64,000 nucleotides of DNA from a virus. The stretch lies in the IMG/VR virus record IMGVR_UViG_3300025280_000024, positions 1 through 64,000 of that record, one strand, 5' to 3'. The notes under the pieces are model-generated. The model was not told the DNA's origin. It ran no database searches and worked only from the letters and a program-made list of their open reading frames with translations. Made by a program: the position numbers and the translations under genes. This document shows, piece by piece, positions 1-39,042 of this stretch (position 1 is its first letter; every line of letters starts with the position of its first letter).

Positions 1-174
1 GTGTGGTATCTCAACGGGAAACTGCATCGTGAAGATGGACCTGCTTTGATATATGCTGATGGAGCAAAAGCGTGGTGGCTCAACGGGAAACGACATCGTG
101 AAGATGGACCTGCTGTGATATATGCTAATGGAACAAAACGCTGGTTTCTCAACGGAGTACAGCAGCAACAATGA
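1..174 (+). CDS. 3' part of a repeat protein (22-aa WYLNGKxHREDGPA repeats), 5'-truncated by the window
   Basis: Frame 1 is open from base 1 to TGA at 172-174. It has 66-bp repeats encoding W(Y/W/F)LNG..HREDGPA(L/V)IYA(D/N)G. Confidence 0.8.
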   Translation: MWYLNGKLHREDGPALIYADGAKAWWLNGKRHREDGPAVIYANGTKRWFLNGVQQQQ

Positions 175-440
175 AACACAACAAAACCACATATGATGCA
201 GCCGAAAGGATCACAACCTTTCACTTTGAAAATGGTCGCACAATGAGACTGTGGAACGACACAACTCAACAGTGGTTTCTCAACGGAGAACCACATCGTG
301 AAGATGGACCTGCTGTGATATGGGCTGATGGAACAAAATCGTGGTATCTCAACGGGAAACGACATCGTGAAGATGGACCTGCTATAATTTTGGCTGGTGG
401 GTTAGAACTTTGGTATCTCAACGGAGAACTGCAGCAATAA
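171..440 (+). CDS. HREDGPA-repeat phage protein, paralog of the upstream gene
   Basis: Same 22-aa repeat; ATGA overlap with the upstream gene. Confidence 0.8.
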   Translation: MKHNKTTYDAAERITTFHFENGRTMRLWNDTTQQWFLNGEPHREDGPAVIWADGTKSWYLNGKRHREDGPAIILAGGLELWYLNGELQQ

Positions 441-655
441 TGAAAATCGAAGTTGGCGATATGATCCTAGGGGATCGTGATTATGGAATCATAATAAAGA
501 TCGAAGAAGAATGTGCAGAGGTTCAATGGTTCGACAAAGGCGACCATCAACGACAACGCCGACTTGAAACCCAATTTGGAACATGTTCCTACCGCATTGA
601 CGAACTCACAGACGCGATCGATGGCACATACAACAAGTTGATCAAGGCAAAGTAA
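440..655 (+). CDS. small KOW/SH3-like protein (MKIEVGDMI...)
   Basis: TAATG coupling at 438-442. VGD motif followed by GIIIKI..EVQW. Start reassigned from the ORF track (410). Confidence 0.65.
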   Translation: MKIEVGDMILGDRDYGIIIKIEEECAEVQWFDKGDHQRQRRLETQFGTCSYRIDELTDAIDGTYNKLIKAK

Positions 656-867
656 TGATAGGCAAACTAGTAAGAATCACTCGCGCAAGCATCGGCGTAC
701 CAAAGGGAACCTTGGGATTAGTCTTGAAAGCAAAAAAAACCGCCTGGAAACTTGAGGATGAAGCCGGGCCGCTGCCAACATGGATGACTTATACTGTTCT
801 TCTGTGTCAGCCCGAACATCGAGAAAGGCGATATATCGCTGAAGATCTTAAAGTGGTGGAAGTATAA
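655..867 (+). CDS. small KOW/SH3-like hypothetical protein
   Basis: MIGKLVRI...GTLGLV...EDLKVV pattern; coupled at both ends. Confidence 0.65.
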   Translation: MIGKLVRITRASIGVPKGTLGLVLKAKKTAWKLEDEAGPLPTWMTYTVLLCQPEHRERRYIAEDLKVVEV

Positions 868-1097
868 TGTTAGGCGTAGGAACACTTTTCAAATACAAGT
901 ATACTCACGGGAGTTGCGAAACGATGTATGGAGTAATTACGAAAAGGCGCGAACAGGAAAACTTAATAGAAATCCAATGGTTAGGTAAAAACTCGTCCTA
1001 TCCAATTTCAGATCTAGCGTTATTGAATTTATTGAAATCGGGTGACGAGAAAAGCGGAATCATCTACAATACGAACGAAAGAGTGAATCATAACTAG
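867..1097 (+). CDS. small KOW/SH3-like hypothetical protein
   Basis: VGTLFKY...YGVIT...IEIQW pattern; TAATG coupling. Confidence 0.6.
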   Translation: MLGVGTLFKYKYTHGSCETMYGVITKRREQENLIEIQWLGKNSSYPISDLALLNLLKSGDEKSGIIYNTNERVNHN

Positions 1098-1106
1098 TTA
1101 TAACGT

Positions 1107-1361
1107 ATGAGTATTTTCAACAAAATCGTTGGTTTCTTCAAGTGGTTTGGTCGAAAACTGAAACCAAAAGAAAAAACCAGATCACTAAATGAAGAAGAAC
1201 TACTGATGATAGGTCAAATTGTAAATACCAATGAAACCCTTTTTCAATTTGTCCTCGACCTTGCGACAGCGAGAGACGACGACGAAATCTTGGATGTTGT
1301 ACAAAGAGCAAAGCAGTGGACAGGCCTGTCCGAAGAACAACTTAATGACTATCTGCACTAA
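1107..1361 (+). CDS. hypothetical protein
   Basis: 84-aa ORF preceded by the ACTAGTTA motif (1093-1100). Confidence 0.6.
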   Translation: MSIFNKIVGFFKWFGRKLKPKEKTRSLNEEELLMIGQIVNTNETLFQFVLDLATARDDDEILDVVQRAKQWTGLSEEQLNDYLH

Positions 1362-1368
1362 AAAAACC

Positions 1369-1397
1369 TTGACAAAAACCCCCATTCATGAGATAAT
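1369..1397 (+). promoter_or_regulatory. sigma70-type early promoter
   Basis: TTGACA-17 bp-GATAAT with a TG extension and an A-rich upstream tract. Confidence 0.75.
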
Positions 1398-1402
1398 ATA
1401 GT

Positions 1403-1624
1403 ATGAACTTCAAGGAAGACACAATGGATGACCTATTGAAAGAAGCCCTAATTCTCGCAACCGAAAGCGGCGCAAACGCGGTCTTAATGCTTGAGAGAAT
1501 TGTGGACAGCGCCGAGTTCGACGAAGACACTGTAACTCTCGATCCCGAGGTTATGGATGAAGTCCGAAATTTCCTTCATCAATTCAAACCACTAATTGAA
1601 CCGACTTCCAATTACCTTCATTGA
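1403..1624 (+). CDS. hypothetical protein (alternative start ATG 1424 after AAGGAAG)
   Basis: ORF directly downstream of the promoter. Confidence 0.6.
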   Translation: MNFKEDTMDDLLKEALILATESGANAVLMLERIVDSAEFDEDTVTLDPEVMDEVRNFLHQFKPLIEPTSNYLH

Positions 1625-1635
1625 AAAGATTACAC

Positions 1636-1708
1636 GGGACGTTAGCTCAGTTGGTAGAGCATCGGGCTTTTAACCCGAGGGTCGAAGGTTCGAGCCCTTC
1701 ACGTCCTA
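1636..1708 (+). tRNA. tRNA-Lys(UUU)
   Basis: Cloverleaf: GGGACGT/ACGTCCT acceptor, TCGGG-CT-TTT-AA-CCCGA anticodon arm, GGTTCGAGCC T arm. No encoded CCA. Confidence 0.95.
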
Positions 1709-1730
1709 CTAACGAAACGAAAGAGGAACA

Positions 1731-1913
1731 ATGACTTACAGAGAACTATTAAGAGAACTTAGCGAACTTGACGACAATCGTTTAGACGACGATGTAGCGG
1801 CTCACCTGATCGAAACAGACGAGTTCTATCCAGTTCATTCAGTTTGTGTCGCAGTCGAGGACGAGTGTGACGTGTTGGATCAAGGACACTTGATCTTAGC
1901 AGTCGTAGCATAG
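1731..1913 (+). CDS. hypothetical acidic protein
   Basis: SD GAGGA; 60-aa ORF. Confidence 0.65.
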   Translation: MTYRELLRELSELDDNRLDDDVAAHLIETDEFYPVHSVCVAVEDECDVLDQGHLILAVVA

Positions 1914-1922
1914 GGAGAAATA

Positions 1923-2276
1923 ATGGGAATTAGAAGCGACGTAGGCATAGCCATCAAAAACGATGTATATGATCAACTACCAGTCAGAACAAAGTTGTTC
2001 ATTCAGGAACACTTTTCACAAGAAGATCATACTGAAGAAGGTGAAGAAGGTGGAAGGTTGTTTCATACTTCTGGTGTCAAATGGCACACCAGCCATTCAG
2101 ATATCTCGAACATTTACGAAGAACTTGAAAAGATTGACGAATGGGGCAACGGTTACTTGATCCTTGAAGGGTGTTATGAATACCCCGAGCACAGTGACAG
2201 CGATGCTGGTAACTGGTATGACAACCCATGGGGAATGTATAGGAATGTCGAAGTCAGTATAGATTGGAGTAGATAA
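1923..2276 (+). CDS. hypothetical phage protein (MGIRSDV...)
   Basis: SD GGGAG; 117-aa ORF coupled to the next gene. Confidence 0.7.
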   Translation: MGIRSDVGIAIKNDVYDQLPVRTKLFIQEHFSQEDHTEEGEEGGRLFHTSGVKWHTSHSDISNIYEELEKIDEWGNGYLILEGCYEYPEHSDSDAGNWYDNPWGMYRNVEVSIDWSR

Positions 2277-2488
2277 TGAGAACGAACGAAGATAGAGCAG
2301 AAGCAGCTAAAGAAGTGATGGATGTTTATGGCGAAAATGTAGGCTATGATCCTTCACGCGGGTTCGATAGCGATTCCATAACGGATCTACTGGTAGACCT
2401 GATGCATGCATTTGGTTCTGAAGTTGTCTTGAATGGCATCGATGTCGCTACGAGACATTACGAATATGAAATCAACTATGAGAGTTAA
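2276..2488 (+). CDS. hypothetical protein
   Basis: TAATG coupling; SD GGAG. Confidence 0.65.
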   Translation: MRTNEDRAEAAKEVMDVYGENVGYDPSRGFDSDSITDLLVDLMHAFGSEVVLNGIDVATRHYEYEINYES

Positions 2489-2503
2489 ACGAATATGAAC
2501 CGG

Positions 2504-2576
2504 CCGGGGGTAGTTCAACGGTTAGAACGAGTGGCTTATAACCGCTTAATGGCGGGTTCAATTCCCCCTCCCCGGA
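2504..2576 (+). tRNA. tRNA-Ile(UAU)
   Basis: CCGGGGG/TCCCCGG acceptor, GTTC/GAAC D stem, AGTGG-CT-TAT-AA-CCGCT anticodon arm. The T arm has one C-C mismatch. Confidence 0.85.
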
Positions 2577-2621
2577 TTAGAAAATGTTCGACAACACAAA
2601 CCATAAACAGGAGAAAGAACA

Positions 2622-2888
2622 ATGTGTAATGCAGAAGTAGTAGACAGATGGGTACAAGGCAACGAAGGCTTCACCCGTTCATTGCGAACAGATGGAAACA
2701 GCCTATATTCCTACAACCTTCGCATTGGGATCACTGGTCCTAATGAAGAGAAGATTTTATTTGATTTCACAAAGCCCGGCAAGAACTATAAGAGTCAAAC
2801 AACGAGTCAACACGTTGGCTTGGCTCGCGTGTATGCCGACACTATCCACCGAGGCGACAGCCCGATTGCGGAGGCAATGAGCAAGTGA
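2622..2888 (+). CDS. hypothetical phage protein
   Basis: SD AGGAG; contains LYSY and SQTTSQH motifs. Confidence 0.7.
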   Translation: MCNAEVVDRWVQGNEGFTRSLRTDGNSLYSYNLRIGITGPNEEKILFDFTKPGKNYKSQTTSQHVGLARVYADTIHRGDSPIAEAMSK

Positions 2889-3235
2889 AGAAGAAACCAC
2901 AGAAGTTCCGAAACCCTATCGCGTATTGCCTCGCAAAGCGCACTGGCAGCGGTTCGGGCAAACATCGCAATCGCGTTCAGGATCTTCGCAAGGGATCATC
3001 GCGTAAGTTGATGCACAAGGCTTTGATCTTTGCTTCTCTTTTGTTTTGCATGAATAGCTCTTCCGCAAATACTTTCATTGATCAAGTTGATGAAGGTTCA
3101 GCCCTTATCTGTTCTAACGATAGTGGCGAGTGGGTTTGCAAGCCGATTTCAGTAGAAGAAATCCGTGAACTTGGATATACCGACGTTGAAGGTTTGATAA
3201 TGATCGAACCAACTGAACTGGAAATAGAGAAATGA
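2885..3235 (+). CDS. hypothetical protein with a basic ArfA-like N-terminus and a hydrophobic segment
   Basis: RNPIA...KGSSRKLMHK followed by ALIFASLLFCM; GTGA coupling. Confidence 0.55.
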   Translation: MKKKPQKFRNPIAYCLAKRTGSGSGKHRNRVQDLRKGSSRKLMHKALIFASLLFCMNSSSANTFIDQVDEGSALICSNDSGEWVCKPISVEEIRELGYTDVEGLIMIEPTELEIEK

Positions 3236-3408
3236 AAGTCGGTGACTTGATAAGACACAAAGATGATCGACGCGATCAATTCTATGTGGTGATCGAAAAT
3301 AATGGCGGCATGACTAAGATAAAACACATAAAACATAGTTGGGAACACTGGTTGTATACAAGGACCTCAGAGGTCCAACAATGGGAGATAGTCTGTGAAA
3401 GTCGGTGA
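3232..3408 (+). CDS. MKVGDL KOW/SH3-like cassette gene (58 aa, not in ORF track)
   Basis: Hand translation MKVGDLIRHKDD...WEIVCESR*. Confidence 0.8.
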   Translation: MKVGDLIRHKDDRRDQFYVVIENNGGMTKIKHIKHSWEHWLYTRTSEVQQWEIVCESR

Positions 3409-3574
3409 CTTGATAAGAAATCCTCGCGCCGGCGCGCTATGGGTCGTGGTAGAAGTGAGCAAAGGCAAAAAATGGCGAGAGGACGGTTATGATATCCTAG
3501 TGATGAGTACCAAAACAGGTTACAAAATGTGGTCATCATCTGATTACTGTTGGAAGATAGTCAATGGCTCTTGA
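3395..3574 (+). CDS. MKVGDL KOW/SH3-like cassette gene (59 aa, not in ORF track)
   Basis: GTG start; KVGDLIRNPRAG...KMWSSSDYCWKIVNGS*. Close paralog of 3739..3927. Confidence 0.8.
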   Translation: MKVGDLIRNPRAGALWVVVEVSKGKKWREDGYDILVMSTKTGYKMWSSSDYCWKIVNGS

Positions 3575-3752
3575 GACAAAATGCCTGACAAGTGGTGCTT
3601 ACTTTCTCACCGAAGTCAATGAAAACAGCGTTTCAGTAAAAGTGGATCTTCCCTTTACACTGAACATGACCGAAGAAGAAGCAGAGTTGATTGAACGACT
3701 TATGCACAATCAATTGGAACTTATATTGAGGCCATATTTTGAAAGTCGGTGA
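3564..3752 (+). CDS. hypothetical non-KOW gene inside the array
   Basis: 62-aa ORF ending FESR* through the junction overlap. Confidence 0.65.
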   Translation: MALETKCLTSGAYFLTEVNENSVSVKVDLPFTLNMTEEEAELIERLMHNQLELILRPYFESR

Positions 3753-3927
3753 TTTGATAAGAATGGAATATGGCCGCTCACTGTGGGTGGTGACAGAAAT
3801 TTCGCCCGATTCGCCGGGATCTAACGGCATCACAAGTGGTGATATTCTAGTTATGAATACCAAATCAGGTTTGAAAATGTGGTCATCATCTGATTACTGG
3901 TGGGAGATAGTCTGTGAAAGTCGGTGA
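3739..3927 (+). CDS. MKVGDL KOW/SH3-like cassette gene
   Basis: TTG start at the junction; ends CESR*. Confidence 0.8.
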   Translation: MKVGDLIRMEYGRSLWVVTEISPDSPGSNGITSGDILVMNTKSGLKMWSSSDYWWEIVCESR

Positions 3928-4102
3928 TCTTGTGAAACCCAGCGACATGATCTGTTGGAGTGACATCGGTGTTATTATGAAAAGATTGTTATCGCCAACG
4001 TGGGAACTCGGCGGTTATGGCGATGTTGTTGTAATGTGGTCTTGCGGATCATATCGAGTGGCTCTTGAATCTAACTTAGTGGTGATATATGAAAGTCGGT
4101 GA
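3914..4102 (+). CDS. MKVGDL KOW/SH3-like cassette gene
   Basis: GTG start at the junction; ends YESR*. Confidence 0.8.
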   Translation: MKVGDLVKPSDMICWSDIGVIMKRLLSPTWELGGYGDVVVMWSCGSYRVALESNLVVIYESR

Positions 4103-4286
4103 TCTTGTAAGAGACAAAGATAACGACATTGGTATAATCGTCGAACTCGACGACACGGTGTCGGATCGCGTGGTTGTTTATTACGCGGCCTTGGGCGAAC
4201 CAGGTGAGCGGGCGACTCTGAACAACGAAGAGAAGTATCAATTCTTGTATGAAGATCAATTAAAGGTGATTTGTGAAGGTCGGTGA
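4089..4286 (+). CDS. MKVGDL KOW/SH3-like cassette gene
   Basis: MKVGDLVRD..DIGIIVEL; ends CEGR*. Confidence 0.8.
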   Translation: MKVGDLVRDKDNDIGIIVELDDTVSDRVVVYYAALGEPGERATLNNEEKYQFLYEDQLKVICEGR

Positions 4287-4440
4287 TCTTGTGAAACTCA
4301 AAGGGACACAACCGTCACAGCTGTATTTCGTCGGCGTTATTATGAAGGTGGGCGAAACATATTGTGATGTGGCGTGGCCTAATGGAAGAAGGTTAATGTT
4401 CAATCGACACTCCTTGGAGGTAATCTGTGAAGGCAAATGA
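4273..4440 (+). CDS. MKVGDL KOW/SH3-like cassette gene (55 aa, not in ORF track)
   Basis: Hand translation (M)KVGDLVKLKG...VGVIMKV...DVAW...LEVICEGK*. Confidence 0.8.
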   Translation: MKVGDLVKLKGTQPSQLYFVGVIMKVGETYCDVAWPNGRRLMFNRHSLEVICEGK

Positions 4441-4609
4441 TCTACAATCCTTAAACAACTTAATCGAACAGATTGCTATAATGAAAGAACGAAACTACAG
4501 TTTACTTCCTGAAATGTTAAATAACGAAGAAACATTCAAATCGTTAGAGAGAATACGAGATTATTTTCTTGACTCTCGGCGGCTTTTGTTGTATAATGGA
4601 GAAGAATGA
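4427..4609 (+). CDS. hypothetical protein starting at the degenerate junction (MKANDL)
   Basis: 14-nt overlap like the KOW genes; SD GGAGGT. Confidence 0.6.
   Translation: MKANDLQSLNNLIEQIAIMKERNYSLLPEMLNNEETFKSLERIRDYFLDSRRLLLYNGEE
4569..4597 (+). promoter_or_regulatory. sigma70-type promoter embedded in a CDS
   Basis: TTGACT-17 bp-TATAAT. Confidence 0.7.
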
Positions 4610-4839
4610 GTAATTACCTTCGCGAAGACCAAATCAAAGTTGGCATGTTAGCGAAGTCCTGCTCAAAACCGGACCCCAGTAAATTTTGGATATCAGGCGT
4701 TTCTGTGATTTTGTCTGAACCATTTGAAACCGTGTCGGCCGGGGTGAAGGGCTTAACAGTCAAACTCTTCTCACCGCGTGGAAAAATCGAATATCATAAC
4801 GCCAACTACTTAATTCCGGTGAAAGATGAAAGTCGGTGA
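4606..4839 (+). CDS. divergent KOW-like hypothetical protein
   Basis: Internal IKVGML motif; ends DESR* through the junction. Confidence 0.6.
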   Translation: MSNYLREDQIKVGMLAKSCSKPDPSKFWISGVSVILSEPFETVSAGVKGLTVKLFSPRGKIEYHNANYLIPVKDESR

Positions 4840-5002
4840 TCTAGTGAAAATAAACCTTAAAAGTCGCGACGACTGGGGCGTTGGAGTTATCGTGAAATTT
4901 GATAATACCTACTTATCGGATGTGCTCGTCGCGTGGTCGAAACTACAGGAAATGTGTTGGGAAATGTCCACCGTATTAGAGGTTATTTATGAAAGTCGGT
5001 GA
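4826..5002 (+). CDS. MKVGDL KOW/SH3-like cassette gene (58 aa, not in ORF track)
   Basis: MKVGDLVKINL...GVGVIVKF...VLVAW...LEVIYESR*. Confidence 0.8.
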   Translation: MKVGDLVKINLKSRDDWGVGVIVKFDNTYLSDVLVAWSKLQEMCWEMSTVLEVIYESR

Positions 5003-5177
5003 TCTAGTGAAATACAAAAGCTACCTTCGCGGCAGAGCCTACGAAAATACCTGTGGAACGATTGTTAAAATAGAATATTATGCAAAAGTGGCGTGGTGGG
5101 ACAAAGACAACTTTATTCCAAACCCGACATTTGAAAACCCAAGAGACTTAAAAGTCATTTGTAAAGGAGAACAATAG
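4989..5177 (+). CDS. MKVGDL KOW/SH3-like cassette gene
   Basis: MKVGDLVKY...GTIVKI...KVAW...LKVICKGEQ*. Confidence 0.8.
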   Translation: MKVGDLVKYKSYLRGRAYENTCGTIVKIEYYAKVAWWDKDNFIPNPTFENPRDLKVICKGEQ

Positions 5178-5498
5178 ATGTTCGTATTAGCACCAGAAGC
5201 AGACATTGCAGGAACAAGTTTTGGAGGAACAATAGAAATTGCTCCAACACGCTTAAATGAACTGTTCGGAAAACCAGAAGAAGGCGATTCATACAAAATA
5301 AGCGGCTTGTATATCTTCAAGGACTGGGGAGATAATGTAGTCACTCTTTATGATTACAAATGTACCAGTCTTTACGACAGTTACTACCCAGATCCAGAGG
5401 AACTGTGGAGCAGTGATGAACCATATGGCTTTCATATCGGGGCATGTACCAGCGAAATAGCAGAAAGGTTCGCAGCGATCTTGTCAGAGATTGATTAA
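5178..5498 (+). CDS. hypothetical phage protein
   Basis: SD AAGGAG; contains LFGKP...TLYDYK...FHIG. Confidence 0.7.
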   Translation: MFVLAPEADIAGTSFGGTIEIAPTRLNELFGKPEEGDSYKISGLYIFKDWGDNVVTLYDYKCTSLYDSYYPDPEELWSSDEPYGFHIGACTSEIAERFAAILSEID

Positions 5499-5530
5499 AT
5501 GAAAAGATCCTTTTAACACAATGAAAATGC

Positions 5531-5563
5531 GCTCGGGTGGTGGAACTGGAATACACAAGAGAC
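5531..5563 (+). pseudogene. possible 5' remnant of a tRNA-Leu-like gene
   Basis: GCTCGGG-TG-GTGGAACTGGAATACAC-A-AGAGAC resembles a Leu acceptor/D arm, with no T arm or 3' strand. Confidence 0.45.
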
Positions 5564-5595
5564 CATTTTTTCACTATGACTACTTTTATATATAT

Positions 5596-5679
5596 GCGAG
5601 AATGGCGGAATTGGTAGACGCAACGGGCTTAAAACCCGTTGTCCGTAAGGGCGTGGGGGTTCAAGTCCCCCTTCTCGTA
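5596..5679 (+). tRNA. tRNA-Leu(UAA)
   Basis: GCGAGAA/TTCTCGT acceptor, ACGGG-CT-TAA-AA-CCCGT anticodon arm, long variable arm, GGGGG-TTCAAGT-CCCCC T arm. Confidence 0.95.
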
Positions 5680-5721
5680 CTTTATAAGACTGAACGAGCA
5701 AAAATATAAAATATTTTTCTC

Positions 5722-5750
5722 TTGACTTTTTTCACATTTCTTGGTATAAT
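5722..5750 (+). promoter_or_regulatory. sigma70-type promoter
   Basis: TTGACT-17 bp-TATAAT with TG extension; ATG 6 nt downstream. Confidence 0.75.
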
Positions 5751-5756
5751 ACTAAT

Positions 5757-6101
5757 ATGAATAAAACACCTATCAAAATTATAGCCGTTCTTTCTTGTCT
5801 CGCAATCCAAGGTTGCCTGTTGGAGATCGGGCCGGTACGACCACATCCAAGCCCAGATGCCCCGTGTCATAGTGATTGGGATTGCCCATATGACACATAT
5901 TGTGAAATTGATGGATTCTGCTACAAACCCTCTAACAATATCGAATGTTATTCTGATCGAAACTGTCCAATGTTTACTTACTGTGGAATGGATGGTTATT
6001 GTTATCAAGAAGGTTATCGCCATTATGAATGCTATTCTGACTGGGATTGTCCAGTGGGTTATTTCTGTGCCATTAACGATGCATGCTATCTTATCCACTA
6101 A
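5757..6101 (+). CDS. cysteine-rich repeat lipoprotein-like protein
   Basis: Signal peptide with lipobox-like IQGC; three C-x-S-D-x-(D/N)-C-P-x3-C-x4-C repeats. Confidence 0.7.
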   Translation: MNKTPIKIIAVLSCLAIQGCLLEIGPVRPHPSPDAPCHSDWDCPYDTYCEIDGFCYKPSNNIECYSDRNCPMFTYCGMDGYCYQEGYRHYECYSDWDCPVGYFCAINDACYLIH

Positions 6102-6110
6102 AAGACAACT

Positions 6111-6305
6111 ATGAAAATGGGTGATTTAGTAAAAGTTTCTGATCGTCATGTAATTTCTTACTATGGTATTGGCGTAGTGATTAAAATCCTTGAAGATTCT
6201 GATATTCGTCTGAGGTTTGCAGACAGACGACCGTTGGCAAAAATTTATTGGAGCGTTCCACAAGAAGTACGAACGTGTTATATTCACACTCTGGAGACAC
6301 TGTGA
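6111..6305 (+). CDS. MKMGDL KOW/SH3-like protein
   Basis: GDLVKV...GIGVVIKI...KIYW. Confidence 0.75.
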   Translation: MKMGDLVKVSDRHVISYYGIGVVIKILEDSDIRLRFADRRPLAKIYWSVPQEVRTCYIHTLETL

Positions 6306-6511
6306 AAATAGGTGATCTCGTAAGGGTTAAATATCCGCTTCCGACGCACAATAATCTTTTGTATGCATATTGGGTCAAGAAGCTATCACTATCGAGTGTT
6401 CCCGTGCTTCTGTTATATTATGGAGGTATGGGAGGTTATTGTAAGATTTATTACGATGGACACGAGAGGCGTGTTAGCGAAGATATACTGGAGGTAGTCT
6501 ATGAACGATGA
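6302..6511 (+). CDS. (M)KIGDL KOW/SH3-like protein
   Basis: GTG at 6302 after GGAG; ends LEVVYER*. Confidence 0.7.
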   Translation: MKIGDLVRVKYPLPTHNNLLYAYWVKKLSLSSVPVLLLYYGGMGGYCKIYYDGHERRVSEDILEVVYER

Positions 6512-7235
6512 ACACAAGAACGTAACAAAATTTCTTTATCACGACAACATTGGTAGAATATCACTCGTGCAGCATTGGGGAACTGATGAAACCATCGTTC
6601 GTGCTGCACGAGTAAGTTTTGGACAACACAAAGAAATAGACGAATTGAGCGACAAGGACAAGAAACTGATCAAATACTTGATCAAACACAAACATTCATC
6701 AACGCTTGAGCATTGTGGTGCTACTTTCCTTTTTGTTGTTCCTCTTTTTGTTCGCTCTCAACATCATCGTCATCGTACTTGGTCTTACAATGAGATTTCA
6801 AGACGGTATACTGATGTTGATATTAAGTTTTATTCGCCTCAAGCGTTTAGAACACAGCATAAAAGCAATAGGCAAGCGAGCAATACTGGTGAGTTGATCG
6901 ATCCCAAATTGTCGTTTGACGGAACATCTGCCCTGTTTGAACCGCAACCTGCCTCGATTGTTGTGAAGGGTGCTCATAATGGTTGCTTGGAACTTTACAA
7001 TAAACTTATCGAAGCGGGAGTTTGCCGAGAACAAGCAAGAGGAATTCTACCGCAGAATATGTATACAACTTATTATGGCACAGTGAATCTTAACAACCTC
7101 CTAAAATTCATTCACCTCCGCATGCACGAAGGAGCACAATTTGAAATTCAGAAGGTTGCCGAAGCCTGTCTTGAGATTGCGACTGACCTTTGGCCTGTTG
7201 CTGTCAATTCTTATAGGAAAGTAAATAATGAATAA
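6501..7235 (+). CDS. thyX: FAD-dependent thymidylate synthase
   Basis: RAARVS, HSSTLEH and the ThyX signature RSQHHRHRTWSYNEISRRY, plus EQARGILP and AQFEI. Confidence 0.95.
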   Translation: MNDEHKNVTKFLYHDNIGRISLVQHWGTDETIVRAARVSFGQHKEIDELSDKDKKLIKYLIKHKHSSTLEHCGATFLFVVPLFVRSQHHRHRTWSYNEISRRYTDVDIKFYSPQAFRTQHKSNRQASNTGELIDPKLSFDGTSALFEPQPASIVVKGAHNGCLELYNKLIEAGVCREQARGILPQNMYTTYYGTVNLNNLLKFIHLRMHEGAQFEIQKVAEACLEIATDLWPVAVNSYRKVNNE

Positions 7236-7434
7236 AATAGAATTAGATGAAGATTACCAAAAAACCCTTGTGGTACTCCTTTACGAACAGGTTATGTCTC
7301 GTATAAACAAACTCAAAGACGATTTAGAAGAATACGGCGGTGTACACATTGGTTACACCAGAGAATTTTTTGATGACATCGCGAAAATAACTCAAAACAC
7401 TATTAAGGAGGAAAAAGATGAGCGAACCAATTAA
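7228..7434 (+). CDS. hypothetical protein
   Basis: Coupled ORF. Confidence 0.55.
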   Translation: MNKIELDEDYQKTLVVLLYEQVMSRINKLKDDLEEYGGVHIGYTREFFDDIAKITQNTIKEEKDERTN

Positions 7435-7627
7435 AATTTTAGAAATTGTTGAAAACGAAGATGGCACAGCAGAAGTCAGCCTCGATATCTCGGACGAATT
7501 CCAGGCTTGGTTCAAAAAGAGCCAGGATTTGCAGCGTTGGAGCCCAAAACGATTTGAAAAATGGTTTATCGAGGCATTGACAAAAGGGTTAATGTTGGTA
7601 AACGAAGAGAGCGATGAGAACGACTAA
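7418..7627 (+). CDS. hypothetical protein
   Basis: SD AAGGAGG; contains IVENEDGTA. Confidence 0.65.
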   Translation: MSEPIKILEIVENEDGTAEVSLDISDEFQAWFKKSQDLQRWSPKRFEKWFIEALTKGLMLVNEESDEND

Positions 7628-7674
7628 CCTTAGAGCTTATAAGCGTTAAAGAAGAAAAATCTGTTATGAATTAT

Positions 7675-7746
7675 GCTTCCGTGGTGAAAGGGAAATCACA
7701 AGGGCCTTCTAAGCCCTTATTCCAGGTTCGAATCCTGGCGGAAGTG
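7675..7746 (+). tRNA. tRNA-Arg(UCU)
   Basis: GCTTCCG/CGGAAGT acceptor, AGGGC-CT-TCT-AA-GCCCT anticodon arm, CCAGG-TTCGAAT-CCTGG T arm. Confidence 0.93.
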
Positions 7747-7755
7747 CTTTTTTAC

Positions 7756-7784
7756 TTGACAAAATAGATGACATATGATATTAT
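7756..7784 (+). promoter_or_regulatory. sigma70-type promoter
   Basis: TTGACA-17 bp-TATTAT with TG extension. Confidence 0.7.
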
Positions 7785-7814
7785 ATATATACAATCACAA
7801 CAACGGAGGAAATA

Positions 7815-8285
7815 GTGGGACTGATTGAAAAACTACAAGAAGCAAACTTAAGCAGCAGCACCAGAATCAAGTTGCGTTCGGAATATGGCGAAGATGTTGT
7901 CCATGCATGGGATAACTATGAATACGACGTCATTGAACATTCAGATTTAGTGGCTGAATTGACAGCATTGGCCTTACACCCATCCAATAAGAACACTTAT
8001 ATCCTTAATGACTTGCGTCATGACGGGCTCCTGGACGACTACGAGCGAGGCCTGTGGGAATTCGAGGAATACGTTCACGATGTCATATATGAGGAATGCA
8101 GCAACTATGGATGGATCGAGACAGAAACAGAGCAGTATGACCACAAGCGTGGATTCTGCACAGCTTACGTTGAATATGACACAACTGTTGGCAATCTGTT
8201 AAAAAACCTGAGTGATCACGATTGGAATGGTTGGTCTGGACAAGTCGACACCAACCTCGGATCCCTCAAGATCGACAACTACTAA
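7815..8285 (+). CDS. hypothetical acidic protein
   Basis: SD GGAGG; GTG start; 156 aa. Confidence 0.7.
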   Translation: MGLIEKLQEANLSSSTRIKLRSEYGEDVVHAWDNYEYDVIEHSDLVAELTALALHPSNKNTYILNDLRHDGLLDDYERGLWEFEEYVHDVIYEECSNYGWIETETEQYDHKRGFCTAYVEYDTTVGNLLKNLSDHDWNGWSGQVDTNLGSLKIDNY

Positions 8286-8298
8286 ACACGGAGAAACT

Positions 8299-8550
8299 AT
8301 GAGCAACAAATCAACCACAAAAGAACAACGAATCGAAAATCTAATCAAAGCTTTCCATGAAAATGAACTCGCAATGAAACCGTTTAAGGAATTCCGCTCA
8401 GATCTAAAAAAGAGCTACGTCGAAAACAACTGGCTCTCAAAGTCAGAAGTTTCGGCCGCGATTAAAGTATATCGCTTCCTTAAAAGTGATGCTGATTATG
8501 ATCAGTTTCACAGCATCTACATCGAAATGGAAAAGAAGTTTGGACAATAG
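8299..8550 (+). CDS. small helical protein, possibly DsbA/GapR-like dsDNA-binding
   Basis: SD GGAG before ATG 8299. The helix pattern LIKAF..NE..MK.FKE..SDLKK only loosely resembles that family. Confidence 0.45.
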   Translation: MSNKSTTKEQRIENLIKAFHENELAMKPFKEFRSDLKKSYVENNWLSKSEVSAAIKVYRFLKSDADYDQFHSIYIEMEKKFGQ

Positions 8551-8908
8551 AAGAAACATATTTGTTTATGGAACACTGCGTAAAGGCGAATACAACAATT
8601 GTCTTTTAAAAGGTGCTACGTTCAAGGGAACTTTTAACACCTTGCCAAGATACGAATTGAGGAACTTTGGTGTATTTCCAGGCTTAATGCTGAATGGTTC
8701 AACTTCTGTAAAAGGCGAAGTTTACGAAGTCGATGATGAAACGTTGGATTACCTAGACTATCATGAAGGGCATCCAACGTTTTATTGTCGCTCGTCAATT
8801 AAATTAAAGGATCACTCTGACAACGTAGAAGCTTATATAATAAACAAACACTCTAAATATAACAAAGAACTACCGATCATCCACAGTGGAGATTGGAAAG
8901 AGAGATAA
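8486..8908 (+). CDS. gamma-glutamylcyclotransferase (GGCT/AIG2-like); true start probably near 8540
   Basis: IFVYGTLRKG, VKGEVYEV, LDYHEG and HSGDW motifs. Confidence 0.88.
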   Translation: MMLIMISFTASTSKWKRSLDNRRNIFVYGTLRKGEYNNCLLKGATFKGTFNTLPRYELRNFGVFPGLMLNGSTSVKGEVYEVDDETLDYLDYHEGHPTFYCRSSIKLKDHSDNVEAYIINKHSKYNKELPIIHSGDWKER

Positions 8909-8923
8909 TTCATAATAAACTAC

Positions 8924-9142
8924 ATGAAACAAGAAGAATCATCACCATGTGTAATTTGTTATGGAACGGGCCAACAGGCTCTGTTTACATCAGTTGTTTT
9001 GTGTCAATATTGTGATGGTCTGGGTTGGGAACTCTCAACAAGTTATAAGACTTTTTTTGAACATATGAGCAAGCACCAACCCGATTTATTGCTGTCTATT
9101 TCTAAATACTACCTCAACAAGTTAAAAAAGGCAGCAGAATGA
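8924..9142 (+). CDS. small zinc-finger protein (DnaJ-type CxxCxGxG x2)
   Basis: CVICYGTG and CQYCDGLG. Confidence 0.65.
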   Translation: MKQEESSPCVICYGTGQQALFTSVVLCQYCDGLGWELSTSYKTFFEHMSKHQPDLLLSISKYYLNKLKKAAE

Positions 9143-9357
9143 GGGGTTACGTCGTGAGTAAACGAGGCACCTTTGGGGTGGTCCAACGAGAATACCGCAC
9201 AGAGTCGGGGGTCGATATGGTCATAATCCGCTGGGGTCCGCTGGGGTGGATCACGCCGGTTAAGAAAAAAGACTGCAAGCCCCTAGCGTCTCGATATGAG
9301 GCAAAAGCTCTCAAAGAGGCAGAGGAATGGCTTAGGGCATTGGAGGAAGCAGAATGA
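9139..9357 (+). CDS. SH3-like hypothetical protein, elevated GC
   Basis: GTFGVV...VIIRW; ends EEAE*. Confidence 0.6.
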   Translation: MRGYVVSKRGTFGVVQREYRTESGVDMVIIRWGPLGWITPVKKKDCKPLASRYEAKALKEAEEWLRALEEAE

Positions 9358-9794
9358 GTGATCGAACAGAGCCGTACTCCATCTGGGTCCTGCTCAACTG
9401 GGACGAGCGGTCCGGCCAAGCGATGCTGTCCGAGAGCCCGAGCAAGGGGCGGCGGATGGGAGACTACGAACGGTCCGCAATCCACTACGAGGCGCAGGCT
9501 GTAGACGGGCACGGCGATAGCTGCCGGTGCCTACCGTGCAGGAACCAGGGGCACGCCCAGGCCTACCGCAAGCTCATCGAGCTTGAGATGGCGGGCACGC
9601 CCATCCTGCATCCTGCCGCATGGAAGGAGGGAGGCAGCAGACCAGTGAAGGATCTAGTCGCGTACCGGGAGGCACTGACGGCGATTCGAGTCGAGGCGAC
9701 CGGAGCCTGGGATGCCTGTCACCCCGTGCTAGAGAAAATCCGAGACATCTGCACGGCTGCTCTGGCTCACTTGAGCGAGGAGGAAGCAGAATGA
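9342..9794 (+). repeat. exact 16-bp direct repeat GGAGGAAGCAGAATGA flanking a GC-rich gene
   Basis: Copies at 9342-9357 and 9779-9794; partial copy GCAGAATGA at 9134-9142. Confidence 0.9.
9354..9794 (+). CDS. GC-rich hypothetical protein (likely recently acquired)
   Basis: 146 aa with GC3-rich codons and a H..SCRCLPC motif; ends EEEAE*. Confidence 0.65.
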   Translation: MSDRTEPYSIWVLLNWDERSGQAMLSESPSKGRRMGDYERSAIHYEAQAVDGHGDSCRCLPCRNQGHAQAYRKLIELEMAGTPILHPAAWKEGGSRPVKDLVAYREALTAIRVEATGAWDACHPVLEKIRDICTAALAHLSEEEAE

Positions 9795-9997
9795 AAGTAG
9801 GCACACTACTCAAAAGCTTAGACTACGATGATGTAGGGGTCGTATATAAGACCACTCGAAGCCAAATATTTATACATTGGGGTAAATCCAATAAAAAAGA
9901 GTCAATATATATTATGGATCTCAACAAGTGGATTATCGGTGGATATTTAAAAGTGATAGAAACAAGAAGGACGGATCATGAACAAAGCACAGATTAA
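9791..9997 (+). CDS. MKVGTL KOW/SH3-like protein
   Basis: ATGA coupling within the repeat; DVGVVY...FIHW...LKVI. Confidence 0.7.
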   Translation: MKVGTLLKSLDYDDVGVVYKTTRSQIFIHWGKSNKKESIYIMDLNKWIIGGYLKVIETRRTDHEQSTD

Positions 9998-10175
9998 CAA
10001 GCGAGCAAAGAGAAAACTTCTTTCAAAACAAAAAAGAAAGCAGCGAAACATTCAAAACGTCAAAAGGAAAAAAGCAGAATCTCACAGAAGAGAAAAGCTT
10101 ATGCAGTTTTTCACTAATTTGTCCAAGACAAAACAGAAAGAAATGCTAAAAAACATTAACAAAGAAGAAGAATAG
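9978..10175 (+). CDS. highly basic small protein
   Basis: 65 aa, Lys/Arg-rich. Confidence 0.55.
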   Translation: MNKAQINKRAKRKLLSKQKRKQRNIQNVKRKKAESHRREKLMQFFTNLSKTKQKEMLKNINKEEE

Positions 10176-10198
10176 CATATAAAATTCTAATTACTTAT

Positions 10199-10420
10199 AT
10201 GAAGGCACCGATCATAAATACAGGAGATTTAATCCAGTACTCCAAAGGAGGGTTTGGTATAATTACCAGAGTTAATAAAAAAGACAATCTTTATACTATT
10301 ATCTGGACATCTCAAGAACGTGGCGTCGGGCGAAACCTAATCTATGACAAAAATATAGTGGACCACCTTATAAAAAAAGGTGATTGGAAGCATCTTTTAA
10401 ACAAAGGAAAAACACAATGA
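10199..10420 (+). CDS. KOW/SH3-like protein
   Basis: TGDLIQY..GFGIITRV...IIW; preceded by CTAATTA. Confidence 0.65.
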   Translation: MKAPIINTGDLIQYSKGGFGIITRVNKKDNLYTIIWTSQERGVGRNLIYDKNIVDHLIKKGDWKHLLNKGKTQ

Positions 10421-10665
10421 ATAGACCTTCTGGAAGCATTAGTCACGAAACAGATATGGGTTTAATGGATATGATAGATTTGGTCAGCACTCAAAAAGAT
10501 ATCATAACATTGCTACGGCGATACGAAGGGCACCAAATGACAGTGACAGAAGAAATCAGTTTTTTTCAATATCTTGTTGATGCCGGCCTTGTTTGGGCTA
10601 TGCCATCCAAATACGTTTCAGTAGCAAAAGAGATGCTTAAAAAAAGATTTATTTATCTCAATTAA
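10417..10665 (+). CDS. hypothetical protein
   Basis: ATGA coupling after AAGGA; contains FFQYLVDAGLVW. Confidence 0.6.
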   Translation: MNRPSGSISHETDMGLMDMIDLVSTQKDIITLLRRYEGHQMTVTEEISFFQYLVDAGLVWAMPSKYVSVAKEMLKKRFIYLN

Positions 10666-10668
10666 CCC

Positions 10669-10697
10669 TTGACAAGTATAACTACCTGTGATATCAT
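10669..10697 (+). promoter_or_regulatory. sigma70-type promoter
   Basis: TTGACA-17 bp-TATCAT with TG extension; ATG 6 nt downstream. Confidence 0.7.
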
Positions 10698-10703
10698 TAT
10701 AGA

Positions 10704-11291
10704 ATGAAAGAAAAAATCAACCAACTTACAAAAATAGTAAACCACCTGACTGCAGTGGAACTAGCATTTTTCAACTCAGTCAAATGTAAAACTTCCTTTT
10801 CTCCTCCGCAAACAACAACGATCAACCATCTTTACAGCAAATATTGTGAAGATGGGTGGAGAACAAACTATGATGATAGAAAGCGAAGAATTATGAAGAG
10901 TTGTGCTGAGTTTTGGGTAAACAATCCCCCAAAGCTCAGTGAGTTGGCTGCTCAAGTGCTGAATAATCCCGACTTTGTCCCAACCAAAGATCAATACAAA
11001 GAAATGTGCGAGAGCAAAGAAGCTCGCAACTTTCTCAATCCCGAGGGAGCCAAACCGTTGTATCCTGCCGGGAGCTTAGTTAAAGTTTCGCGCATATCTT
11101 CAGGTCCTGGTCAATGGGGCGAGGCCTTCATAGGAAAATTTGGAGTCGTCATTCGAGTACGAAAGAACGAACAGGTTTACCCAAGTCACAATTCCGATTT
11201 TTTATATCATGTCTTATTGCAAGGATCAACGGGAATGATAATGTTCCCAGAAAGAGACATAAAATTAATTGAGGTTCAAAATGAGAGTTAA
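10704..11291 (+). CDS. hypothetical protein with a C-terminal KOW/SH3-like domain
   Basis: YPAGSLVKV...GKFGVVIRV...YHVLL...ERDIKLI. Confidence 0.65.
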   Translation: MKEKINQLTKIVNHLTAVELAFFNSVKCKTSFSPPQTTTINHLYSKYCEDGWRTNYDDRKRRIMKSCAEFWVNNPPKLSELAAQVLNNPDFVPTKDQYKEMCESKEARNFLNPEGAKPLYPAGSLVKVSRISSGPGQWGEAFIGKFGVVIRVRKNEQVYPSHNSDFLYHVLLQGSTGMIMFPERDIKLIEVQNES

Positions 11292-11613
11292 TATTACATA
11301 TTCAGTTGAAATGGACAAAATTCCGGAGAAAGTTTCCGACTTTCTTTTAAATGCTGCCGTTAAATCTTCTGAATTAGTTCGTGATTTAAACGAAATGGTG
11401 GTTGACATGTGCAATGACTTTTCAATTGAAAAACATTTAGAACGTATGGATAAAATACGTCTTGAACTTGCCGGCATAGACCATACAATGTTAGATTGTT
11501 CTGAAATATTACACGGATATCAAAAAGCTTTGGTTCAACTAAGAGAACCACAAATATCAACAGAGGAAAATCACCATGACGAAACAAGAAATGAAAAAGC
11601 TGAAGGGGGGTGA
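11281..11613 (+). CDS. hypothetical coiled-coil protein (MRVNITYSVE...)
   Basis: SD GAGG before ATG 11281. Confidence 0.65.
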   Translation: MRVNITYSVEMDKIPEKVSDFLLNAAVKSSELVRDLNEMVVDMCNDFSIEKHLERMDKIRLELAGIDHTMLDCSEILHGYQKALVQLREPQISTEENHHDETRNEKAEGG

Positions 11614-11815
11614 TTTAATTTATTTGCCATCTGCGGTAACACTGTATAAATTTAACAAGGAAAACCCCTGTGTACATCAGGCAACCACAACACTTAAGCC
11701 AGTGACAACGGCATTTGTCAACCGATATAATAATCTTTGTGGTGTTCTATATAATGGAGAAATTTGGAGTGTTAACTCTCAAAATATATTTTTAGTAGGG
11801 GAACAACATGATTAA
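11576..11815 (+). CDS. SH3-like hypothetical protein
   Basis: GGDLIYLP...VLYNGEIWSV. Confidence 0.55.
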   Translation: MTKQEMKKLKGGDLIYLPSAVTLYKFNKENPCVHQATTTLKPVTTAFVNRYNNLCGVLYNGEIWSVNSQNIFLVGEQHD

Positions 11816-12104
11816 ATTGATTGAAGTATATAGAGAGAAAGGGTTTGGTGGAAGTAGTGGGTTTAAGATGAGAGAAGTATATATAAATCCCAGCCACGTC
11901 ATCTGTATGTATGATGACCTTTCAATGAAAAAGGGTCTTCTTGAGGGGTTGTTACCACAAGACCTCGACAAACGACAACTATTCACCAAGTTGCGTCTTA
12001 ATCAAGGTCAATCCTTGCACCAAATCACTGTTGTCGGCAGCACCAATATCATTAGCGAGAAACTGGGTCGGCGCGCCGACAAACGACAAATACTGCACGA
12101 TTAG
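11808..12104 (+). CDS. hypothetical protein (weakly FlbD-like)
   Basis: MIKL...EVYINPSHV...TKLRL...ITVVGS pattern. Confidence 0.5.
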   Translation: MIKLIEVYREKGFGGSSGFKMREVYINPSHVICMYDDLSMKKGLLEGLLPQDLDKRQLFTKLRLNQGQSLHQITVVGSTNIISEKLGRRADKRQILHD

Positions 12105-12149
12105 AGGCACCAACGAAGGTTTTACCAATCTGCCCGCCTAGTTACTTAT

Positions 12150-12533
12150 GTGAGCGATTCGAAGCATACATATAATGCTCCCAATATAACACAAGATCTA
12201 GAAGCCCAAGAAGACTCTTGGGAACAACACGATAACTTAAGCGAAAATCAAAAGCTTTTTCTAGAAGCCTCAAAAGAAACATCAAATAAAATTACACGCG
12301 TTGTGAGTCAACAAAAAATACACTTTGAACAACAGTTACGTCGACAAAAAAACAACACCAAAGGTTTAGTTATCCCTTATTTAGAACCCCACGTTCCAGA
12401 AATAGAAATTAATAAATTAGACTCTGGCGGCTTTGAAGTTAAAGTCACAATCTCTGGCGATGGAGACACTACATCTTCGGCAATCAGAGATTTGATGTTA
12501 ACAACGTTCAAAGTGTTGGAAAAATTGATATGA
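12150..12533 (+). CDS. hypothetical protein
   Basis: 127 aa; preceded by CTAGTTA. Confidence 0.55.
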   Translation: MSDSKHTYNAPNITQDLEAQEDSWEQHDNLSENQKLFLEASKETSNKITRVVSQQKIHFEQQLRRQKNNTKGLVIPYLEPHVPEIEINKLDSGGFEVKVTISGDGDTTSSAIRDLMLTTFKVLEKLI

Positions 12534-37920: not shown

Positions 37921-39042
37921 TTATTCACTGTCATAAAATTGAGAAGCATCACCCTCTCTTTTGTCGAACTTATGAATAATCTCTTCATCAATAATTTGAA
38001 GAACTTGTTTCTTGAATTCCGGTTCAATAATCTTCTCTGGCCATCTGCTAGGTTGAAACTTTACAGCCTCACCATTATCATATTCCAGAGTATACCAAGA
38101 ACCAGCAGTCGTCACTCGATCAGAGTTTTTGATTGCATCAAGTAAACTTTCATCATCCATAATGCCAACGTCGGTACCACCCCACAAAATTTTGAAGTTA
38201 CATGTACGCCCCTGTGAGCCAAACCTTGACTTCTCAAGTTTTGCTTTGACTTCCGAACCAACACGGAATCCGTTATCATCAGTTACAAAAGATGATTTTG
38301 CCTTTCTGCCTGTGAGCCAGATACGCAGGGAATATGCATATGCTACTGCTTTTCCGCCAGGAGTTACATAAGGTGTCGTCATCGCCACAACATGAGCATT
38401 GATACCAGTCGGAATGTTGGTCTTCAACTGGTTCAAGATCAAAAGCGCTGATCTTGAGTTTGCAATCGGGACTGTCAGTTTCGACATTCCCTTTGCCAAG
38501 ATTCTTGCTTTCAACGCTACGCTTGATTGAGGATTGAAATCTCCTTCAAGATCCGAGATAGCAGGGGTGTTTGCCAAGCTGTCCCAAATAAACAACATTT
38601 TGTTTTCATTGGATTCAAGCAGTGTTTCAATTGTCTCTAAAACAAATTCCACACTAGTTGCCTGAATATATAACAGTTTTGACAAATCACACCCTGCTGC
38701 CTCGATGAAGGTAGGATCCATGGCTGACTCTGAATCAAAGTAGACAACATCAATACCCATTTTTTGAGCATTGCTAGCAATTTGTACAGCCATGTACGAT
38801 TTACCAGTTGACTCTAAACCAGCGATCTCCGTGATCTTTCCGACAGGTATGCCGGCGAGCCGGCCTTTGGCTATGATACTATCAAGCCATCTTGAGCCGG
38901 TAGGAATCCATTCCTTAACTAAGGTGGGACAATCTTCATCCTTGAGATCGTGGGCTACTTCCATACCTGCCTTTTTGTTGATGATCGAGCGTAGATCTTC
39001 TATCGATAGTTTGCCAACTTTGGTGCTCTTTCGTTTGGCCAT
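37921..39042 (-). CDS. recA: RecA/UvsX recombinase
   Basis: IPTGS, GLESTGKS, DSE, IWDS, NQL and TPGG motifs. Confidence 0.93.
   Translation of the reverse strand: MAKRKSTKVGKLSIEDLRSIINKKAGMEVAHDLKDEDCPTLVKEWIPTGSRWLDSIIAKGRLAGIPVGKITEIAGLESTGKSYMAVQIASNAQKMGIDVVYFDSESAMDPTFIEAAGCDLSKLLYIQATSVEFVLETIETLLESNENKMLFIWDSLANTPAISDLEGDFNPQSSVALKARILAKGMSKLTVPIANSRSALLILNQLKTNIPTGINAHVVAMTTPYVTPGGKAVAYAYSLRIWLTGRKAKSSFVTDDNGFRVGSEVKAKLEKSRFGSQGRTCNFKILWGGTDVGIMDDESLLDAIKNSDRVTTAGSWYTLEYDNGEAVKFQPSRWPEKIIEPEFKKQVLQIIDEEIIHKFDKREGDASQFYDSE

Follow-up and report, generated by a model that had tools for sequence, protein, structure and literature searches.

The DNA stretch analyzed here (the window, 64,000 nt) is the first 64 kb of one 102,045-bp virus contig, IMG/VR record IMGVR_UViG_3300025280_000024, whose completeness was estimated at 56% by CheckV. 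At positions 3232 to 5177 it carries an array of small genes in which eight members of one protein family, each of 55 to 65 amino acids (aa) and referred to below as units 1 to 8, are chained via a 14-nt overlap that is read in two frames. A preliminary description, drawn from the letters of the window alone, had interpreted this array as a gene accordion in which recombination at the repeated joint adds, deletes, or swaps whole genes. We found that whole units are indeed gained, lost, and swapped at this joint across the family, and that the window's own array is stable over the distances compared. The genes and features of the array are listed below; the family profile, a hidden Markov model (HMM), was built from the window's units.

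2885..3235, plus strand: upstream gene, with its stop codon within the ATGA of the unit 1 junction
3232..3408, plus strand: unit 1, 58 aa, ATG start; 14-mer at 3232-3245; HMM E value 1e-11
3395..3574, plus strand: unit 2, 59 aa, GTG start; HMM E value 4e-8
3564..3752, plus strand: non-family gene, 62 aa; its last codons, E-S-R-stop, form the unit 3 junction
3739..3927, plus strand: unit 3, 62 aa, TTG start; family HMM match
3914..4102, plus strand: unit 4, 62 aa, GTG start; family HMM match
4089..4286, plus strand: unit 5, 65 aa, ATG start; family HMM match
4273..4440, plus strand: unit 6, 55 aa, GTG start; AAG junction variant; family HMM match
4427..4609, plus strand: 60-aa gene starting M-K-A-N-D-L, which opens with the degenerate junction GTGAAGGCAAATGA
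4569..4597, plus strand: sigma-70-like promoter match TTGACT-17-TATAAT, by consensus match alone, just before the gene at 4606
4606..4839, plus strand: 77-aa gene, with its C terminus KDESR-stop in the unit 7 junction
4826..5002, plus strand: unit 7, 58 aa, ATG start; HMM E value 9e-17; the unit chosen for structure modeling
4989..5177, plus strand: unit 8, 62 aa, ATG start; last of the array; family HMM match

The motif NTGAARGTCGGTGA was found exactly at 3232, 3395, 3739, 3914, 4089, 4273, 4826, and 4989, and the full junction pattern, [AGT]TGAA[AG]GTCGGTGA, likewise matched exactly at all eight array positions, as the preliminary description had reported. With up to two mismatches allowed, the motif gave 15 hits versus 2.95 ± 1.52 in shuffles. 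The degenerate copy at 4427, GTGAAGGCAAATGA, was also confirmed, and it preserves both the 14-nt overlap and the position of the stop codon. At the junction, the downstream frame reads M-K-V-G-D, every motif opening an open reading frame (ORF) of 55 to 65 aa, and the upstream (+2) frame reads [Y/C]-E-[S/G]-R-TGA, the end of the preceding ORF; the translations thus agree with the two-frame reading given before. A Shine-Dalgarno (SD)-like sequence (GGGAG, GAGG, AAGGTG, GGAGGT, or GAGGT) lies 8 to 13 nt before each start and within the L-E-V-I-type codons of the last strand of the preceding protein, again as had been proposed. The junction 14-mer and its flanks held no palindrome on direct reading (no formal inverted-repeat scan was run), no terminator-like sites were present at the array joints, and one promoter-like site only was located inside the array.

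The units share 30 to 59% mutual aa identity. Units 2 and 3 are 59% identical and have 73 nt at 89% identity in their 3′ halves, with ends that differ; unit 3 is a recent paralogue of unit 2, in keeping with the common body and unlike 3′ ends ascribed to them earlier. Unit 2 terminates in WKIVNGS and overlaps by 11 nt with the next gene, 3564..3752, for which hhalign detected no similarity to the family profile (probability, 0.4%). Both this gene and that at 4606..4839 end in ESR, as had been noticed; the latter showed an hhalign probability of 2% against the family and a predicted local distance difference test score (pLDDT) of 40 in a single-sequence AlphaFold2 (AF2) model. Unit 6 ends in VICEGK-stop inside the degenerate junction, and the gene that opens there, 4427..4609, has no match to the family HMM and a body that looks helical in sequence. 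A leader like that of the family thus precedes an unlike body in this gene, and relatives show analogous cases. The tail of unit 8 is KGEQ rather than ESR, and the following gene begins at 5178. Two tracts of identity across junctions, 27 nt (3382-3408 and 3901-3927) and 24 nt (4826-4849 and 4989-5012), were confirmed.

The family is a very large one among uncultured marine myoviruses: searching IMG/VR with the family profile recovered 735 members in 80 loci, with up to ~20 family copies per array, and the tandem junction pattern was present in at least 119 IMG/VR stretches. The units matched no family in Pfam or PHROG, and none of 119 members (0/119) matched the KOW model PF00467, for which a six-frame search of the genome gave nothing at E ≤ 1. 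The cultured-phage collection yielded no DNA or protein match, a search of 5.8 billion proteins returned unnamed marine proteins only, and the ESM Atlas returned 'hypothetical protein' clusters only, plus a 0.90 lead to DsrB.

The AF2 model of unit 7, computed from a 119-sequence alignment, is a five-stranded barrel with a pLDDT of 92.4; its strands span residues 6-9, 19-26, 32-37, 43-47, and 51-55 (the last being LEVIY), and the ESR tail is modeled as coil. The Foldseek neighbors of this model were PWWP, Tudor, Spt5/NusG KOW, and ribosomal L14e domains (template modeling scores, 0.68-0.76), and the family profile gave weak matches to PDB sequences of the Spt5 KOW (E value, 3e-4) and NusG KOW (E value, 0.016) domains. 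The units are accordingly predicted to fold as SH3/KOW/Tudor-like five-stranded barrels, and the fold suggested in the preliminary description is supported by both lines of evidence. We considered whether the leader could be a targeting peptide and rejected it: M-K-V-G-D runs into the first strand of a confidently modeled barrel and resembles a KOW-type start, and, given the model and the Spt5/NusG profile matches, M-K-V-G-D-L-V is best read as the opening of a KOW-type fold with no detachable signal.

In orthologous unit bodies pN/pS, the ratio of nonsynonymous to synonymous polymorphism, was 0.19-0.27. These values indicated that the units are real genes under purifying selection, and the earlier idea of a diversified library was not borne out, since the selection acting on these bodies is not diversifying. 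Net charge ranges from -8 to +5, and the isoelectric point (pI) from 4.2 to 10, a spread that suggests varied binding partners rather than one common nucleic-acid ligand. GTG served as the start codon in 216 of 509 (~42%) K-V-G-D family starts in loci L081-L160, unit 3 of the window starts with TTG, and it is likely that gene callers miss units with 14-nt overlaps and GTG or TTG starts.

The conservation of the joint was then examined base by base. Consecutive family members overlapped by 14 nt in 351 cases, by 4 nt in 29, and by 1 nt in 6. In the 14-nt overlap, the upstream TGA stop begins with the T of the Gly codon GGT, and the upstream Arg codon begins with the third base of the Val codon, where C (CGG) and A (AGG) both retain Arg. 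Among members not selected via the search motif, to which the Val codon counts were restricted, those with an upstream family overlap used GTC 109, GTA 30, GTG 7, and GTT 3 times, compared with 31, 13, 5, and 7 times, respectively, for those without an upstream overlap (Fisher P = 0.0045); the usage of GGT fell from 100% to 61% between the two situations. The ESR tail was found in 243 of the 351 members that precede a family start, and the other tails were diverse. Because ESR is common only before a family start and is coil in the model, it is a by-product of the start of the next gene, and comparison of the 351 junctions revealed no conserved protein feature in the tail in its own right.

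The upstream side of the joint is likewise doubly used. The consensus of the last strand, L-E-V-I-[S/N], encodes GAGGT, and an SD-like 4-mer was present at -16 to -4 in 321 of the 351 junctions versus 21% of random positions. The residue after the last strand sets the start codon of the next gene, S or C giving GTG and N or Y giving ATG. Taken together, the codon data indicate that dual coding and the SD account for most of the nucleotide conservation of the junction. A codon preference of the M-K-V-G-D leader, which had been named as a possible full explanation, is insufficient on its own. The joint has thus remained near-invariant while the bodies diverged to 30 to 40% identity, because two frames and a stop codon constrain the same bases.

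Comparisons between relatives (loci and contigs designated by L numbers) revealed exchange of whole units at this joint. Exactly one unit, of 176 bp, is present in only one of L089 and L091, which are 99.5 to 100% identical over 11 kb, and both ends of the breakpoint have nothing but the 20-nt junction sequence in common. L175 and L178 likewise differ by one unit. Between L121 and L128, one unit body has been replaced within flanks that are 98.5 to 100% identical, and the new body is similar to another of that array's units; two units have been replaced between L111 and L138, and L121 and L175 have the same units at 88 to 97% identity in a different order. Homology blocks (≥88% identity, ≥120 bp) between different loci were then collected from 74 locus pairs. 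Their internal ends fell at -20 to +29 nt of a junction start in 138 cases, mid-unit in 10, and outside arrays in 71; counted as unique positions, 95 ends lay at a junction versus 7 mid-unit (P ~ 1e-43 against a uniform expectation). These data indicated that the gain, loss, and swapping of whole units at the junction, as postulated in the preliminary description, hold across the family. Non-family bodies also occur with the leader, and sometimes with the ESR tail in addition, as in a two-helix membrane protein of L111 and L138 and in genes of L109, L154, and L105.

The depth of marine metagenome contigs (runs X4-X7) peaks at every junction, and many contigs match 20 to 26 nt there only; the joint is therefore common to many co-occurring phages in the samples. 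Read-derived joints were considered as evidence of junction skipping and rejected: all those listed have only 20 to 26 nt on one side and are junction copies of other phages, uninformative about turnover.

Gene-scale differences near the array and at other joints were also noted. The window segment 9143-9780, which holds two GC-rich genes (9139..9357 and 9354..9794), is missing from the Tara contig L218, and the right end of this indel coincides with the start of a remote family member at 9791. Its borders are as follows.

9134..9794, plus strand: indel at a second joint type, bounded by the 9-nt repeat G[C/T]AGAATGA, which combines SD, ATG, and stop

L218 in turn has ~600 bp extra after tRNA-Leu (L218:4421-5018), encoding an HNH-type homing endonuclease that is absent from the window (at 5688). 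This lineage thus does undergo gene-scale indels at short joints, although none was seen within this array over the distance to L218. Elsewhere, L082:3990-4370 and L136 (reverse strand) hold different non-family genes at the same place, with flanks 99.4% identical on the left and 95.9% on the right, and GGAGAATAAAGAATGAAA, comprising SD, spacer, and ATGAAA, borders the swap on the right in one contig and on the left in the other. Other standard joints such as GGAGAATAAAGAATGAAA may therefore act as exchange points too. A thyX-anchored comparison of array turnover was unusable, since relatives at 57 to 74% ThyX identity are mostly without family members near thyX.

Within this genome the family profile detected nine clear and a few marginal members, every one in the first 12 kb. 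Two of these, downstream of the array, are as follows.

6111..6305, plus strand: outlying family member, 64 aa, M-K-M-G-D start; E value 2e-9
6299..6511, plus strand: remote family member, V-K-I-G-D start; E value 5e-4

The second is joined to the first by a 4-nt GTGA overlap and itself ends in a Y-E-R-stop tail that overlaps with the thyX start. The preliminary description had listed further relatives outside the array, and the list is only partly supported: that at 6111 is strong, those at 6299, 10199, 655, and 9791 are marginal (E values, 5e-4 to 1.3e-3), and those at 440 and 867 and the C terminus of 10704 are weak (0.015-0.11). In the same region, two ORFs at window positions 1-440 consist of W-[YF]-L-N-G-K-x-H-R-E-D-G-P-A repeats, which by eye resemble the MORN type.

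The contig encodes the myovirus markers tail sheath, T4-type major head protein, and large DNA polymerase, as well as a ribonucleotide reductase and a GroEL-like chaperonin (window 17534-19102, minus strand; phrog_5725, E value 1e-133), and its source is an uncultured marine T4-like myovirus. By capsid, immuto-group Flavobacterium phages are the closest of the cultured relatives (~48% identity), and marine IMG/VR contigs reach 60 to 79%, several of them from genomes of ~185-190 kb. In the first 12 kb, small plus-strand genes stand in one block with four tRNA genes and thyX, and consensus matching gave 45 sigma-70-like promoter matches versus 26.6 ± 5.1 expected; this part looks like an early, plastic region. 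An Rfam search over 1-12500 returned the four tRNAs and no other RNA element. No match to PF00589, the sole tyrosine integrase model searched, was obtained in the 102-kb contig, which is 56% complete. A recombinase gene is present.

37921..39042, minus strand: UvsX/RecA-type recombinase; PF00154, E value 1e-36

This UvsX/RecA homologue is a candidate enzyme for exchange at short homologies. Beyond the window, at contig positions 72825-86429 on the minus strand, 14 genes of different lengths open with the leader M-K-L-[LI]-F-E-N-W-R-K-[FY]-L and are divergent beyond it, and they constitute a second shared-leader family of the genome, on 14 unrelated genes.

We consider it likely that the dual-coded joint, lying in an early-region tandem array of paralogues, passively channels the recombination of whole, coupled genes. 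The array consists of paralogous mini-genes, each encoding a predicted stand-alone SH3/KOW-like barrel of 55 to 65 aa and presumably expressed early in infection. The 14-nt overlap encodes the barrel start (M-K-V-G-D) together with the unstructured tail and TGA of the preceding gene, and the SD held in the L-E-V-I codons suggests that the chain is probably translated by termination-reinitiation coupling. An invariant direct repeat every ~175 nt would then passively channel slippage, unequal crossing-over, or gene conversion, carried out by the phage's own recombination system, and whole, correctly coupled genes would be added, removed, replaced, or moved, with in-register products viable by construction. 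Passive channeling of this kind is the most likely mechanism. Channeling of recombination by the junction is distinct from its having evolved for that purpose, a separate claim that these data do not support.

Several observations weigh against this reading. L218 is 98.8% identical to the window over 1266-5688 and agrees with it in all eight units and their order, and contigs of another sample span 2929-5688 without rearrangement (97 to 99.5% identity), the other-sample contigs keeping the unit order of the window throughout (96 to 99.5% identity across all). Turnover was thus not seen in this array, and unit order and content were identical in relatives, at shallow divergence only; the preliminary description had itself named such identity as evidence against an accordion. 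The term overstates the window's own array, and it is for the family that the cassette idea holds. All relatives compared are metagenome assemblies, and a search for replicates of the L089 and L091 forms found the flank in those two contigs only, one contig per form. The flanks of neighboring junctions were no more alike than those of distant ones (0.52 versus 0.51 across 80 loci), and the neighbor effect in the window itself was weak (P = 0.027); local gene conversion is therefore not pervasive, and we dropped it as a general process. Finally, an approximately twofold excess of GTC and GGT persists without an upstream overlap (P = 1e-6 to 1e-8), outside dual coding. Ancestry from inner units is the simplest reading of this residual bias; solitary family members, in which its decay away from arrays could be followed, numbered nine, too few for the purpose.

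A first alternative is that selection alone explains the pattern: the joint is kept by two-frame reading and coupling, recombination is no commoner there than elsewhere, and the block ends arise as survivors remain in register at gene boundaries and the conserved junction bases extend alignments to the gene border. Most of the codon bias is accounted for by dual coding, in line with this explanation, the missing adjacency effect and the stable array of the 98.8% relative fit it, and without intergenic space a viable exchange must land at the overlap. We nevertheless regard it as unlikely. The L089/L091 indel is in exact register with the 20-nt junction as its sole common sequence, the hallmark of slippage or of exchange guided by homology; only 7 of the 102 unique in-array block ends are mid-unit, despite other short matches in neighboring paralogues; and T4 recombines experimentally at shorter microhomologies, of 6-10 bp (PMC9391042).

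A second alternative goes further than passive channeling and holds that the junction nucleotides are kept for gene exchangeability, as a selected, integrase-free, integron-like cassette adaptor. TGA would stand in both alternative frames beside an SD and a start, and a captured ORF would be terminated, coupled, and expressed. The GTC/GGT enrichment where no upstream gene overlaps is in line with such an adaptor, as are the non-family bodies that carry the leader (window 4427, the L111/L138 membrane protein, and the genes in L109, L154, and L105), the gene-scale indels bounded by other short joints in this lineage, and the second leader family on 14 unrelated genes. However, second-order selection is hard to demonstrate, the residual bias could be ancestry, with inner units as the source of those first in an array, leader-bearing foreign bodies are few (a handful in ~700), and the window's own array is without turnover. 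We therefore judge a selected adaptor very unlikely. The wider proposition that an integrase-free adaptor lets abundant marine phages build and reshuffle small-binder libraries in an integron-like manner is quite unlikely; if such an adaptor does exist, the second leader family and the short joints that bound other indels would be additional applications of its principle.

It is scarcely credible that the differences between near-identical contigs (unit indels, swaps, and reorderings) are assembly chimeras, created where metagenome assemblers met the repeated junction: the metagenomic origin of all relatives, the great abundance of the junction plus ~10 nt in the samples (depth peaks and many 20- to 26-nt partial matches), and the single contig per form of the L089/L091 indel speak for it, but the identity at the joints (14 to 40 nt) is shorter than the final assembly k-mers usually used, independent assemblies give identical arrays (the window versus L218, the X5 contigs, and L204/L205), and the junction-bounded pattern extends across 74 locus pairs.

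With hundreds of copies of one joint, these arrays offer a natural test bed for linker-guided versus random-then-selected exchange of phage genes, and the occurrence of the joint in abundant ocean phages makes break points directly countable in long-read viromes. The proteins themselves form a large uncatalogued family of small barrels with widely differing surfaces, which are plausible binders of host or phage targets. In fold they are predicted to resemble the KOW domains of NusG/Spt5 and ribosomal proteins L24 and L14e and the Tudor/PWWP domains, with which the model shares a five-stranded SH3-like barrel and a K-x-G-D-x-V-type first strand; YorP of the Bacillus subtilis phage SPbeta (PDB 2HEQ), a small stand-alone phage SH3-like protein, has the same barrel type. 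Unlike KOW domains, the units do not match PF00467 and stand alone at 55-65 aa rather than as domains of transcription or translation factors, and their charge is hypervariable (pI 4.2-10).

As a gene system, the array differs from integrons in having no PF00589 match in the contig (56% complete) and no attC-like imperfect inverted repeat on direct reading of the 14-mer and flanks, for which no formal scan was made. Under the module theory of Susskind and Botstein, lambdoid phages have been proposed to exchange modules at conserved boundary or 'linker' sequences, and such sequences in HK620 and its relatives are reportedly sporadic, intergenic, and placed between unrelated modules. The array shares with these linkers the idea that whole genes are exchanged by homology at short conserved border sequences, and differs from them in that a dual-coded overlap is repeated hundreds of times in one family.

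The T4 tifA accordion (Srikant et al. 2022, PMC9391042) is similar in the gain and loss of gene-sized tandem segments at very short direct repeats (6-10 bp), but the T4 copies are recent and identical and arise under selection at arbitrary microhomologies, whereas the units here are paralogues of old standing (30-59% identity) that share a single standard joint kept by selection. Accordions such as T4 tifA and poxvirus K3L are recognized by near-identical tandem copies that vary between strains; in the window the units are 30-59% identical and their number equals that of L218. Single-unit differences in number are present in other lineages (L089/L091), where the segment is also bordered by a short direct repeat, the 20-nt junction.

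The closest known system is the modular shuffling mediated by promoter-early stem-loop (PeSL) cassettes within hyperplastic regions of T4-type phage genomes (Arbiol et al. 2010, PMC2839356; Comeau et al. 2014, PMC4122927). In both systems short repeated motifs border small, mostly unknown early genes of T4-like myoviruses, the indels and replacements that distinguish close relatives have their breakpoints within the motif (here in relatives, not in the window's array), and an integrase is not involved. Mini-circles have been demonstrated for PeSLs (PMC2839356, PMC4122927), and the array described here is known from assembled sequence. The PeSL is an intergenic terminator with an early promoter and an SD; the present repeat is a 14-nt two-frame stop/start overlap without stem-loop or promoter. 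What is new relative to PeSL, then, is a joint that lies inside coding sequence and belongs to a single protein family, whose members it links to one another.

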